Made by a program: the position numbers and the translations under genes. The notes beneath the pieces were generated by a model. It saw only the letters and a program-made list of their open reading frames with translations, was not told where the DNA came from and searched no databases. A stretch of DNA of 43,617 bases, taken from positions 1 to 43,617 of the forward strand of contig JBAZUA010000001.1 in assembly GCA_041661645.1 (NCBI GenBank), read 5' to 3'. Origin of the DNA: Minisyncoccota bacterium (lineage in GTDB: Bacteria > Patescibacteriota > Minisyncoccia > Phycocordibacterales > UBA6065). This document shows, one piece after another, positions 1,332 to 4,452 of this stretch; position 1 is the stretch's first letter, and each line of letters starts with the position of its first letter.

Positions 1332-1730
1332 ATGAACAAAACAGCAGGATACATAATCGCGGCGGGAGGCCTCTTATCGGCGAGCCTTTTCATGTTCGAC
1401 TTCTCCGGCGTCTCAGATGCCGAGCTGAAGCAGTACATCCAGGACTCGCTCGCCCGGGGGTGCCGGCCGATCATCGACGTCTGCACGTCTGACTGCGGCT
1501 CGGCCGAGCCTCAGCAGAACGTCACCGAGGAGTGCATCATCCCGAGCGGAGACATCATCAAGGTCTCATACACCAGGGCCCAGAACGGGTACGTGAAGCT
1601 CGCGCAGGACCTTGGCATCAGCGCCACGAACACGTCACCGCTCGAGCTCCCCGACAGGATCAGGGAGAAGCTCGAGGATAGCGGAGTCTCTGTCGAGCCT
1701 CAAAAGGAGTCTTTCGTCATCACGGACTAG
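1332..1730 (+). CDS. Hypothetical secreted or membrane-anchored protein
   Basis: Hydrophobic N-terminal segment and four Cys. It starts 5 nt after the integrase stop. Confidence 0.7.
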   Translation: MNKTAGYIIAAGGLLSASLFMFDFSGVSDAELKQYIQDSLARGCRPIIDVCTSDCGSAEPQQNVTEECIIPSGDIIKVSYTRAQNGYVKLAQDLGISATNTSPLELPDRIREKLEDSGVSVEPQKESFVITD

Positions 1731-1741
1731 CTCGTTGCGGT

Positions 1742-1769
1742 TCCCGGCCGATCGACAGATCGGCCGGGA
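1742..1769 (+). terminator. Strong 12-bp hairpin after ORF 1332-1730 (terminator-like, U-tract weak)
   Basis: TCCCGGCCGATC-GACA-GATCGGCCGGGA. Confidence 0.5.
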
Positions 1770-1794
1770 GACGGAACCAGTTATTTGAAAAACA

Positions 1795-1926
1795 GCGGTA
1801 GGGAGAGGGCCGGGGAAGTTCTTCGTCTGAGGATTCCATAGCTCGTATTCGTTCCAAACTCAATGCGTTGCAGGCCAGGCGCGACCACCCAATCCCCGGT
1901 GTCGCCCTCGGCCCTGTCCCTGTCGT
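1795..1926 (+). ncRNA. Candidate structured RNA (long closing stem with G-U pairs enclosing smaller hairpins)
   Basis: 1795-1814 GCGGTAGGGAGAGGGCCGGG pairs with 1906-1926 CCTCGGCCCTGTCCCTGTCGT, including several G-U wobbles. Confidence 0.4.
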
Positions 1927-1952
1927 TCATAAACCATCAATCCACATGATCC

Positions 1953-2183
1953 ATGTGCAAAGTCACGTGTCGGGCATGCGGCCGGCCCTTTGCGGTCGTC
2001 GGAATAGTTCGTCGCGGCGAAAGCTGCTTCTGTTCGGTAAAGTGTTTAAGAGACAACCTCGATGTCAGAGAGGAAACCCAAAACGCCGTGGCGATTGAGT
2101 TTCATCCGAAGGCTCCCGATGTCGTCCCGTTCCACCATCAAGCGTTCCACGCGCCGGGCTTGCTCGGCCTCGTGGGGCAATGA
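1953..2183 (+). CDS. Small zinc-finger protein (CxxC...CxCSxxC, TRASH/MYM-like)
   Basis: CRACG and CFCSVKC motifs. Confidence 0.6.
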   Translation: MCKVTCRACGRPFAVVGIVRRGESCFCSVKCLRDNLDVREETQNAVAIEFHPKAPDVVPFHHQAFHAPGLLGLVGQ

Positions 2184-2243
2184 AAGGAGGTGATCTTTCT
2201 CACCCGAGCCTAACCCGCTCGGTGATGGCGGTAAGTCCGCTTC

Positions 2244-2267
2244 AAGGAGACTACGGTCTCCTTTTTT
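2244..2267 (+). terminator. Intrinsic terminator
   Basis: AAGGAGAC-TACG-GTCTCCTT followed by a T-run. Confidence 0.8.
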
Positions 2268-2328
2268 GTCGGTAAAGTTTTGATAAATAAAAAGTAAAGA
2301 AAATATAAAGGCGATGTTGACTTTTTTC

Positions 2329-2356
2329 TTGACGTCGGCTCAATGCGGAGTAGTAT
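2329..2356 (+). promoter_or_regulatory. Sigma70-type promoter for the second integrase
   Basis: TTGACG-N16-TAGTAT. Confidence 0.6.
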
Positions 2357-2376
2357 CGGAGCCATTACAAGTTAAT

Positions 2377-2582
2377 AGTCCCGGAGCCCGAAAGGGCCCT
2401 GCCGCGAGGCATATTTCACCCCTGGGCCTATCTTGTGAGCATCGTACGCCTTCTGACGATTTTACTTTTAGTTTAATCTCACAGGCGTATAATGCCATTA
2501 GTAACTCCCTGAAAAGGGTTGTCTGCGAGCGATCGCCGGCGTTCAAAGTTACGGCACGGGCCCGGGGGTGAAATACCGGGCT
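2377..2582 (+). ncRNA. Candidate ~205-nt multibranched structured 5' leader or RNA upstream of integrase 2
   Basis: Nested stems 2377-2384/2576-2582, GCCC-GAAA-GGGC, 2411-2428/2559-2575 (~17 bp), 2432-2439/2478-2485, and a possible pseudoknot 2445-2451/2483-2489. Confidence 0.5.
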
Positions 2583-2591
2583 TTGTGTTAT

Positions 2592-3764
2592 ATGTTCATA
2601 AAGTTTCAAGAAAAGTACGAGGAATATTTCGAGTATCTGAGGAAGAGCGGAAAGACAGACAAGACGATCAGCGAGCACAGGAGGATGCTATGCGACCATT
2701 TCCCGGAGCGCATCAAGACGATGCGCCTTGCCAAGATGTCTAAATCAGACATCGCAGATCTGCTCGAGGCGGGAAGGCAGCATGGCGCCCATGGGCCGAC
2801 GCGACTCATCGTCGTGCTGAGGCGGTATTTCAACTTCATGCAGTCCGAGCTCGGCATGGAGATGCCCTTCGACTGGCGGGATGTCAGAGTCCCGATGTCG
2901 AAGCACAAGGAGCAGCCGGTATTCGAGGACCAGGAGATAGCCCTGCTCTTCAAGACCATGGAGGACCTCGAGCCCGGGAGCGTTCATGGCAAGCGGATGA
3001 ACTGGACGATGAGCACTCTCTTCGAGACGCTGTTCGCCACCGGCATGCGTATCCACGAGCCGCTCATGCTGAAGAGGTCGCAATTCCCGCAGATCAAGGC
3101 ATCGAAGGAGCTAGTGATCCTGGGCAAGGGAAGCAAGGAGCGAAAGATATTCTTCACCGATCGGGCGATTGAGAAGCTCGAGGAATACCTCGGCCGGAGG
3201 AATGACACGAGCGACTCCCTCTTCGTAAACTCCTGCGGGGAGCCCTTAATAATGGCGACGGCCCGAAGCTATTTCGAGCGCTTCAAGCGAAAGCTCCGCG
3301 AGCTCGGGCACGAGGAGATAGCACGGAAGCTGAAGAGCCATACGTTCAGGCGCACGCTATCGACGCACCTCTTCGAGAACGGTGCCGACATCAAGACCGT
3401 GCAGAAGATCCTCGGTCATGAGTCCGAGCGCACGACGATCAAGTGCTATATCCGGGCGAACGAGAAGAGGGCGAAGGTGATCCATACCGCCATCCTATCT
3501 AAGATACCTTTCGAGAAGCTCGCTACTCGGTACAAGGAAGTCCCCGACGGATCGGTTCACGTCCGCATCACGGAGAATGGCGGCCGGTGGATGCCGATGG
3601 ACGAGCAGGCATCAGAGGAGCTCAAGGGAATGGTGTCGATGATGAGGGATCAGTTCGCATCGCCGGACGAGAAGCGAATCCTGCAGAAGCTATTTAGCTC
3701 TCTCGGTCAGATATTGGAGCCAGTGACGCCTGTGAATCTCGAGCTTGAGAATGTTGGCGGGTAA
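2592..3764 (+). CDS. Tyrosine recombinase/integrase with a C-terminal extension
   Basis: Motifs TGMRIHE, GKGSKER, HTFRR and LGHESERTTIKCY. ATG 2592 is preferred over GTG 2568, which lies inside the RNA stem. Confidence 0.93.
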   Translation: MFIKFQEKYEEYFEYLRKSGKTDKTISEHRRMLCDHFPERIKTMRLAKMSKSDIADLLEAGRQHGAHGPTRLIVVLRRYFNFMQSELGMEMPFDWRDVRVPMSKHKEQPVFEDQEIALLFKTMEDLEPGSVHGKRMNWTMSTLFETLFATGMRIHEPLMLKRSQFPQIKASKELVILGKGSKERKIFFTDRAIEKLEEYLGRRNDTSDSLFVNSCGEPLIMATARSYFERFKRKLRELGHEEIARKLKSHTFRRTLSTHLFENGADIKTVQKILGHESERTTIKCYIRANEKRAKVIHTAILSKIPFEKLATRYKEVPDGSVHVRITENGGRWMPMDEQASEELKGMVSMMRDQFASPDEKRILQKLFSSLGQILEPVTPVNLELENVGG

Positions 3765-3984
3765 TGATAAAATCTATGCATGAAAGGGCCGAAGCCAAAC
3801 ATAAAAAAAGACCTCGAGATCCTCGCGCTCAAAGCGCAGGGCCTTAGCTTTAGAGCCATCGCTAAGAAGAAAAATCGCGACGTGAAGCGCGTGTATGTGG
3901 CGTACCAGAGGGCAAGGACGCTAGTGGGTGTTGGCGGGTTATCCACAGTTAAGTAACAAGTGGGGCTTTGACGTGTTGGCGGGT
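3752..3984 (+). repeat. Three exact copies of TGTTGGCGGGT (3752-3762, 3929-3939, 3974-3984); DnaA-box TTATCCACA at 3939-3947
   Basis: Read directly from the sequence. Confidence 0.9.
3780..3956 (+). CDS. Small basic HTH DNA-binding protein (58 aa; candidate excisionase or regulator), absent from the supplied ORF track
   Basis: MKGPKPNIKKDLEILALKAQGLSFRAIAKKKNRDVKRVYVAYQRARTLVGVGGLSTVK. The GLSFRAIA...VKRVY segment fits an HTH pattern. Confidence 0.7.
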   Translation: MKGPKPNIKKDLEILALKAQGLSFRAIAKKKNRDVKRVYVAYQRARTLVGVGGLSTVK

Positions 3985-3995
3985 AGAGATATACT
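3968..3995 (+). promoter_or_regulatory. Sigma70-type promoter with a TGTTGGCGGGT repeat in its spacer
   Basis: TTGACG-N16-TATACT. Confidence 0.7.
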
Positions 3996-4001
3996 TATAA
4001 C

Positions 4002-4158
4002 GTTCCTCGAAAATATCATACAGATCGTGGACGAGTTCCGAGATGATTTTGTGTGATGTTTCGATTTTTATGCAGTACTATTTCGGATCAAAGAAGGGCG
4101 GAGACGCACTTCAGTGGTCTAAGAGATAGTTTCAAAAGAGCCCGAAAGGGCTCTTTTG
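4002..4158 (+). ncRNA. Candidate ~155-nt ncRNA of unknown family
   Basis: Promoter upstream, hairpin 4007-4064 and hairpin 4077-4130 (GAGA tetraloop, G-U pairs), then a terminator. No convincing ORF inside. Confidence 0.6.
4133..4158. terminator. Bidirectional intrinsic terminator
   Basis: CAAAAGAGCCC-GAAA-GGGCTCTTTTG. Confidence 0.85.
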
Positions 4159-4236
4159 TTATGGGACCACCGTTTATTTTTATTTACTTCAGGAACAGCT
4201 TTTTGTCGGTGTAAATCGCTTGGCAAACAAAAGCCC

Positions 4237-4452
4237 CTAATTTGGGGCCTGGGGACCTGATTCACCTAGCAGGGAGTGGCTAATCGCCAGTGCGGACAGT
4301 GCAAGAAAAAAAGACATGAAGTGCACATGAGGGTTGATGGACTGAATGAGGGTGCGATATTTTTCGATGAGCAGGAGAGGGTTCAGGTCTGTGCTTATGA
4401 ATAGTATGGCAAGGCCATACGCCGCAAGATAGTAGGCAATTCTCGTTTTCAT
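4237..4452 (-). CDS. Small two-TM membrane protein
   Basis: Two hydrophobic stretches. Start taken at MKTRIAYY. Confidence 0.5.
   Translation of the reverse strand: MKTRIAYYLAAYGLAILFISTDLNPLLLIEKYRTLIQSINPHVHFMSFFLALSALAISHSLLGESGPQAPN

Follow-up and report, generated by a model that had tools for sequence, protein, structure and literature searches.

What lies between a promoter-like site and the start codon of a prophage integrase gene in a Minisyncoccota bacterium, and what might it do for that gene? The locus belongs to a stretch of 43,617 nt (contig JBAZUA010000001.1 of assembly GCA_041661645.1, positions 1–43,617, forward strand), hereafter called the window. A preliminary description had proposed that a compact leader with a riboswitch-, ribozyme- or scaffold-like fold and a possible pseudoknot controls or accompanies the integrase. 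Judged by its sequence, 2377–2591 is a real, conserved and uncatalogued structured RNA. The features of the locus are the following.

2244–2263, + strand: terminator-like hairpin with a T-run, closing the upstream phage genes
2329–2356, + strand: promoter P1, TTGACG-16-TAGTAT, agreeing with the consensus at 9 of 12 positions
2377–2591, + strand: structured RNA (RNA1), about 215 nt, defined by the match to covariance model R1 and a fold z of −5.67
2592–3764, + strand: tyrosine integrase (integrase 2), 390 aa; Pfam PF00589 at 2.6e-29, PHROG integrase, Xer/lambda-Int-like fold
3780–3956, + strand: 58-aa helix-turn-helix (HTH) ORF after the integrase, with weak HTH matches below the Pfam cut-offs
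3968–3995, + strand: second promoter-like site, TTGACG-16-TATACT, between the integrase and the att core and pointing across att
4106–4129, + strand: attR, a copy of the last rpsI codons (ALQWSKR*), with the 12-nt core GCACTTCAGTGG at 4106–4117; the element ends at about 4119

The promoter placed by the preliminary description at 2329–2356 does read as a promoter-like site on the + strand, and its hexamers recur upstream of the RNA in four related loci (L017, L018, L019 and L025). Given that the terminator-like site at 2244–2263 closes the upstream phage genes, the RNA appears to form a transcription unit of its own. The start codon had also been placed correctly: ATG 2592 agrees with the aligned N-termini (MF..) of 24 homologues, and an in-frame GTG at 2568 sits inside the 3′ hairpin. 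As had been supposed, the leader is folded beyond chance. Positions 2357–2600 fold at −102.2 kcal/mol versus −74.4 ± 4.9 kcal/mol for 200 dinucleotide shuffles, none of which folds as well (z = −5.67). The outermost helix of the minimum-free-energy fold stops at 2580, 11 nt before the ATG, and in an alternative fold the 3′ hairpin stops at 2588, 3 nt before it.

The RNA comprises nine helices, which are arranged as a 5′ three-way junction (P1, P1a, P1b), a central part (P3, P4, P4a, P4b) and a 3′ hairpin (P5).

2380–2426, + strand: 5′ three-way junction, from folding and covariation
2380–2384 (CCCGG) / 2422–2426 (CUGGG), + strand: helix P1, closing the three-way junction
2386–2397, + strand: P1a, with a GAAA loop
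2400–2411, + strand: P1b, with a GCGA loop
2412–2422, + strand: junction strand J, pairing with the P5 loop
2412–2428, + strand: 5′ strand of the long-range helix (J plus the 3′ strand of P1)
2435–2498, + strand: P3, a long hairpin that includes the TACGCCT/AGGCGTA stem and a conserved UAUAAU box at 2488–2493
2501–2552, + strand: P4 domain, with the closing stem 2501–2506 / 2547–2552
2507–2518, + strand: P4a, with a GAAA loop
2521–2540, + strand: P4b, with a GCGA loop
2554–2588, + strand: P5 hairpin, with the stem 2554–2565 / 2576–2588
2566–2575, + strand: P5 loop GGGUGAAAUA, pairing with J

The helix of about 17 bp noted earlier corresponds to 2412–2428/2559–2575, which spans 17 nt at 94% complementarity with one G-U and is part of the minimum-free-energy fold. 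The proposed pairing of TACGCCT (2445–2451) with AGGCGTA (2483–2489) is correct in position and complementarity; it is not a pseudoknot, the two segments being the strands of one nested stem. The sole pseudoknot candidate predicted in the RNA is the 17-bp helix itself, when the competing P1 and P5 form. GNRA and UNCG tetraloops cap P1a, P1b, P4a and P4b and recur in the homologues. P5 is GC-rich and ends 2–16 nt before the AUG across members; in the window its 3′ strand ends 3 nt before the AUG and continues into the invariant tail CUUUGUGUUAU, which reaches to 2591. Its stem amounts to −15.5 to −21.9 kcal/mol and is followed by, or runs into, UUUGUGUUAU. A consensus terminator scan gave no call at P5, because the 10-nt loop exceeds the 8-nt maximum of the scan.

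Inside P3, a TATAAT-like box (TATAAT, TATAGT, TAGTAT or TATACT; 2488–2493 in the window) is kept in all nine known RNAs, and is preceded by TG in L018, L020, L032 and L035, as in an extended −10 element. An internal promoter would explain the box, and so would a conserved motif of the RNA itself.

The same architecture stands upstream of homologous tyrosine integrases in nine sequences, which represent three deep clades and about seven lineages. A metagenome scan for the integrase yielded 13 loci, nine of which hold the 5′ end of the gene with its upstream DNA; the element is present in seven of these (L017, L018, L019, L020, L023, L024 and L025) and absent from L021 and L022, the leaders of which are identical. 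Covariance model R1, built from five sequences with the window and L017 left out, finds both full-length, the window at 2376–2591 with 73.4 bits (E 1.6e-21) and L017 with 64.5 bits. In an alignment of seven sequences, standard pairs fill 92.9% of 510 cells versus 35–45% with the partners slid, 35 of 78 pairs show compensatory changes on both sides, and none of 500 shuffles reaches any of five covariation measures; this alignment is model-based, with the long-range pairing added by hand, and is fitted to the structure, so that the counts for nested helices are inflated, the sequences are related, and L017 is misaligned in the centre (29 gap cells). The fold is thus kept upstream of homologous integrases with many compensatory changes, which supports the earlier proposal of a structured RNA controlling or accompanying the integrase; absent conservation was the outcome named in advance as refuting it.

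Two loci from other genomes of the phylum, L032 (genome G249) and L035 (G526), carry a leader of equal size and layout before integrases about 30% identical to that of the window. The order is P1 around two tetraloop hairpins and the junction strand, then a central domain, the 3′ hairpin and UUUGU..AUG. These two were assigned by folding and reading, rather than by a model: an R1 search of L032 gave no match, a MAFFT alignment of all nine sequences misaligned the 5′ domain of both, and R1 is the only model. In L024 (1–1459) and L023 (492–2168, − strand), the usual context upstream of the RNA has given way to a large adjoining ORF with a higher G+C content, and we read this ORF as possibly transposase-like.

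In each of the nine members the integrase follows the RNA directly. An R1 search finds one copy of the RNA in its genome, and among 150 other genomes of the order R1 gave only two weak matches, of 22.2 bits (G661) and 16.3 bits (G035). The G661 match was judged to be chance, having no adjoining integrase and a promoter-like box inside it. L021 and L022 show a clean absence of about 230 nt; their integrase of 362 aa is intact, and the promoter, the 5′ hairpin and an att motif of the rpsI type are all kept. L021 branches within the clade that bears the RNA (96/98 support), and the comparison indicates that the RNA was lost cleanly in these two loci. L031 also lacks it, having just a plain hairpin and a U-run before the AUG of an intact integrase, as does the decayed L036.

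The pairing of J with the P5 loop amounts to 8–14 Watson–Crick base pairs in all nine sequences. Its letters differ by lineage and occur in six versions (UAUUUCACCCC, UAUAUUAACCC, UAUCUUAACCC, UGUCUUAC, UGACGCGAA and UGACGCUAA), the J sequence varying freely between clades. This helix lies outside the R1 model, yet 98.4% of its cells are paired in the seven-sequence alignment and four of its nine pairs change on both sides. The observed length was reached by 0 of 500 shuffles in six sequences, and by 8, 1 and 3 of 500 in L023, L032 and L035, respectively. No conserved single-stranded "pocket" was identified in the RNA.

Two folds compete for these strands. In state B, P1 and P5 are formed; in state A, J and the 3′ strand of P1 pair with the 5′ strand and loop of P5, and the 5′ strand of P1 pairs with the 3′ strand of P5. 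The calculated energies of states A and B are −98.8 and −81.4 kcal/mol for the window and −90.6 and −74.3 kcal/mol for L017, respectively, and in the five L018-type sequences state B is favoured by 0.9–8.0 kcal/mol. The two folds therefore lie within 1–17 kcal/mol of each other in all seven sequences tested, and P1, P5 and the J:loop helix all covary; a static pseudoknot fits the same pairs. The minimum-energy fold of L032 is A-like. In the predicted folds, CUUUGUGUUAU-AUG is single-stranded in state A, and in state B it is buried, the pairing stopping 3 nt short of the AUG. Only the window and L017 have a strong outer helix of state A, between the 5′ strand of P1 and the 3′ strand of P5; in the L018 type this helix is rich in wobble pairs, and in L035 it is imperfect. 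Given this weakness outside the clade of the window, the support for a switch is weaker than that for the pseudoknot pairing. Another possibility is that P1 and P5 coexist with part of the J:loop helix as a pseudoknot. In such a pseudoknot, a fully paired P5 loop without a linker seems sterically unlikely; a linker of 3–4 nt is present in L032 and L035.

The gene behind the leader encodes a member of a rare family, with 50 proteins at E ≤ 1e-3 among 5.8 billion, 24 of them 55–94% identical. Six residues, R153, K179, H250, R253, H276 and Y286, are invariant in 25 integrase sequences, and we read them as the putative catalytic R..K..H-x-x-R..H..Y set. A structural search returned Xer and lambda Int folds as the top matches, as for an ordinary two-domain enzyme, and a C-terminal extension of about 80 aa gave no separate match in the fold search. 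Among viral contigs and deposited phages no closer relatives were found: two scans gave one distant locus and none, and a further comparison gave identities of at most 33%. An ORF occupies the position of the 58-aa HTH ORF in L032 and L035 as well; its product may be an excision or regulatory factor.

The second promoter-like site is kept as TTGACG/TTGACA-N16-17-TATACT in L018, L019, L021, L024 and L032. In the circular phage it would read the genes of the left arm (the RecT side), and in the prophage it faces host grpE. Direct repeats with TGTTGGCGGGT occur at 3743–3765, 3920–3942 and 3965–3987, two of them overlapping the promoter-like sites 3745–3773 and 3968–3995; the 58-aa HTH protein or the integrase may use them as operator or arm-type sites.

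The integrase gene adjoins a phage attachment site in the host. The 12-nt core GCACTTCAGTGG is common to 4106–4117 in the window and to attL on contig C5 of the same genome, within L057 1054–1520, where rpsI (PF00380) ends in ..PQWSKR* and is followed by a second copy, ..ALQWSKR*, and by phage genes that include a RecT-like one (2.3e-32). The window itself opens with the end of a tail-fibre-like gene (3–299). In six of the seven same-genus loci fetched, rpsI is directly upstream of grpE, and the window and L017 are identical at 59 of 60 positions up to CAGTGGTC and diverge after it. Given the shared core, the phage genes between its two copies and the empty-site order rpsI–grpE in relatives, positions 1 to about 4119 of the window are, by these signs, the right arm of a prophage that has integrated into the last codons of rpsI, between this gene and grpE-dnaK. 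On the same grounds integrase 2, adjoining attR, is taken as the integrase of this prophage, and the RNA as the leader of its gene. Motifs of the S9 end also lie downstream of related integrases in L018, L019, L021, L024, L027, L032 and L035. An att site at the 3′ end of the S9 gene seems unusual, and the last codons of this ribosomal protein are hereby defined as a phage attachment site.

Several candidates near the att site were rejected. A supposed "RNA2" downstream of the integrase (YCAGUGGNNNAAGMGNUAA with a promoter and a terminator) proved to be the coding end of rpsI (QW[S/A]KR stop), that is, the att site itself; a duplex prediction between RNA1 and this "RNA2" gave unrestricted duplexes that carry no information. 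The exact 11-mer TTTTTGTCGGT, which has only two copies in the window (2263–2273 and 4200–4210), was considered as marking the element ends; its right copy is host DNA beyond attR, and the two copies are probably due to chance. Tandem S9 C-terminal coding ends (QWSKR stop) were observed in L057 (contig C5) at 1447 and 1502, L018 at 4234–4330, L021 at 1891–1970 and L024 at 3546–3625, and look as if they were stacked remnants of repeated integrations.

What the RNA does is suggested by its place in the transcript. No promoter-like site was found between P5 and the AUG, and the only one found for the integrase lies upstream of the RNA; the integrase must therefore be read through the RNA. The one sequencing run compared with the locus (contigs, probably of DNA) covered only 1863–2134 of the compared stretch, which counts neither for nor against a transcript. 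In a crude scan, 20 of the 29 ORF starts in the window lack a Shine–Dalgarno-like 4-mer, and the match of the integrase, GGTG, lies inside the P5 loop. As the organism mostly does without Shine–Dalgarno sequences, structure at the start should decide translation. From the fold, its covariation, its strand, its fixed position and the prophage context, we infer that the RNA is most likely a cis-acting leader gating integrase expression, a reading to which we assign a probability of roughly 60%.

In the putative model, the promoter of the RNA would drive an operon of the integrase and the small HTH gene, with the RNA as its 5′ leader. P5, being GC-rich and followed by CUUUGUGUUAU, could act as an intrinsic terminator; it could also bury the unstructured A/U-rich stretch that ribosomes would need where most genes lack Shine–Dalgarno sequences. 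The long-range pairing, together with that between the P1 5′ and P5 3′ strands, might then replace P1 and P5 and free the start, yielding a bistable ON/OFF switch. Otherwise, the J:loop pairing might lock P5 into a pseudoknot. The signal could be a ligand, a protein, temperature or the kinetics of transcription.

Known RNA families did not account for the element. Rfam 15 (4227 families) gave no match in the whole window at gathering thresholds, none overlapping 2377–2591 at E ≤ 10 in a search of 1700–4300, and, at E ≤ 0.1, none to the counterparts of the RNA in nine related loci; a search for tRNA and tmRNA was negative as well. The ribozyme mentioned in the preliminary description has nothing in its favour, no Rfam ribozyme family being matched. 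One Rfam family was met nearby: in L018, a LOOT RNA (RF03000) matches 2379–2496 on the − strand with 78.1 bits, relative to a gathering score of 46.4, about 260 nt upstream of the integrase leader. The literature consulted, taken apart from the supplementary motif lists of the surveys, links no structured RNA to a tyrosine recombinase. In the portions covered, the motif surveys name just integron attC-like motifs (PMC5737381) and STAXI (PMC2864571) near integrases.

Among known systems, nine covarying helices before one gene family recall the conserved aptamer-like 5′ leader domain of a riboswitch. Riboswitch and attenuator leaders such as T-box and SAM-I carry terminator/antiterminator expression platforms. 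The present leader resembles them in having its own promoter, a multi-helix domain followed by a hairpin and a U-rich tract near the start codon, and, by prediction, mutually exclusive helices of similar energy. It differs in that it has no Rfam match, the gene that it would control is a prophage integrase, and the strand that would compete with the putative terminator varies freely in sequence. Pseudoknots in mRNA are known to trap or occlude translation starts in T4 gene 32, rpsO/S15, SAM-II and preQ1-II. Like them, the leader has a hairpin near the AUG, the loop of which pairs with a distant covarying strand; unlike them, it has a conserved domain of 130 nt separating the two strands, which are about 140 nt apart, and the 8–14 bp fill the whole loop, which would be sterically hard with an intact P5 stem. 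"Fold-back" inhibition limits the transposases of IS10, IS50 and IS200, and sib retroregulates lambda int. The likeness to these 5′-UTRs and to sib is that RNA structure would keep the recombinase of a mobile element limited; those structures consist of one short hairpin or of an RNase III site at the 3′ end, whereas here a 5′ RNA of 215 nt has nine helices. The bridge RNA of IS110 is reported as a structured non-coding RNA directly 5′ of the recombinase gene (PMC11208160, PMC11208158). It shares with our RNA this position immediately before a mobile-element recombinase; the recombinase here is of the tyrosine class, and the RNA has no loops complementary to target or donor and is lost where the integrase is intact. 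STAXI is described as a short, tandem, pseudoknotted motif near XerDC-type integrase genes, maybe acting as single-stranded DNA (PMC2864571). The present element is likewise near an Xer-type integrase gene, but it differs in architecture and has no Rfam match.

Other readings of the element have to be weighed against a cis-acting leader. It might be an independent phage non-coding RNA, the transcript ending at P5 to give a stable product of about 225 nt that would act in trans on host or phage, with the proximity of the integrase reflecting gene order. Its own promoter with a terminator before it, the resemblance of P5 and the U-rich tail to a 3′ end, and a set of nine helices and tetraloops larger than occlusion of a start codon requires are consistent with this reading. 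It is nevertheless unlikely, given that the RNA lies 2–16 nt from the integrase AUG in all nine members, with integrases only about 30% identical, that it is single-copy and not seen elsewhere in the order bar the two weak matches, the inspected one of which adjoins no integrase, and that the integrase has no promoter-like site between P5 and the AUG. By analogy with the bridge RNA of IS110, the tyrosine integrase might bind the RNA as a cofactor or guide that aids att recognition or assembly. The position of the RNA would match that of the bridge RNA, immediately 5′ of the recombinase in a mobile element (PMC11208160), and its conservation across deep integrase clades would fit as well; the omega RNA of IscB has a position of this kind too. 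On the other side, the loci without the RNA (L021/L022 and L031) have intact integrases, and L021 keeps the same rpsI 3′-end att motif. No RNA match of at least 10 nt to the att core or its flanks recurs at a consistent position among nine loci, and J shows only scattered 7–8-nt matches to att and flanks, as expected by chance. The integrase has an ordinary two-domain Xer/lambda-type fold, and att recognition by enzymes of this type needs no RNA. Within the literature covered, no RNA-dependent tyrosine recombinase was found, and we hold such a guide to be very improbable. Given that the RNA is lost in L021/L022 with integrase and att intact, a dispensable cis-regulator fits better than an obligatory cofactor.

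The element might also act as DNA, either as a folded single strand or cruciform like integron attC and CTX attP, or as protein-binding sites of an attP. It does stand in a mobile element beside a tyrosine recombinase, the opposite strand of the leader also folds better than its shuffles (z = −4.27), and covariation alone is reported not to separate single-stranded DNA from RNA (PMC5737381). However, the att core at 4106–4117 is about 1.5 kb away, which puts the crossover outside 2377–2591. The fold is multi-branched, its GNRA and UNCG tetraloops are RNA motifs on the + strand only, and G-U occupies 36 of the 474 paired cells of the alignment; each of these would turn into an A-C mismatch on the opposite strand. 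As the promoter in addition points into the element, we take it to be an RNA of the + strand and give hardly any credence to folded DNA.

As a cis-acting leader, a large covarying RNA before an integrase would be a novel means of regulating the gene of a recombinase, and the RNA, with its pseudoknot or switch, would represent a new orphan class. We know of no described control of integration or excision in temperate phages of bacteria with very small (CPR-like) genomes. A further proposal, that the RNA is a scaffold or cofactor bound by the integrase, which would couple recombination to its own synthesis or set its directionality, is improbable. Were an RNA partner real, this would be the first RNA-assisted tyrosine recombinase, and binding of the RNA by the integrase would extend RNA-assisted recombination to the tyrosine class. 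A less extreme reading would be a new riboswitch class, by which the prophage might sense a host metabolite or signal for integration or excision; sensing of this kind would tie host physiology to lysogeny.

Two further observations concern other integrase genes. In 11 of 18 upstream regions from the order of G249 (L038, L039, L041–L044, L046–L048, L051 and L052), the 3′ end of the 16S rRNA gene is followed within about 300 nt by an integrase paralogue 31–38% identical to that of L032, and most of these paralogues have a hairpin and UUUU directly before the AUG. In the window, inverted repeats of 27 nt at 350–376 and 1260–1286, 85% complementary, flank the first integrase gene (508–1326) after the tail-fibre-like end, and the segment between them may be invertible, for tail-fibre variation.
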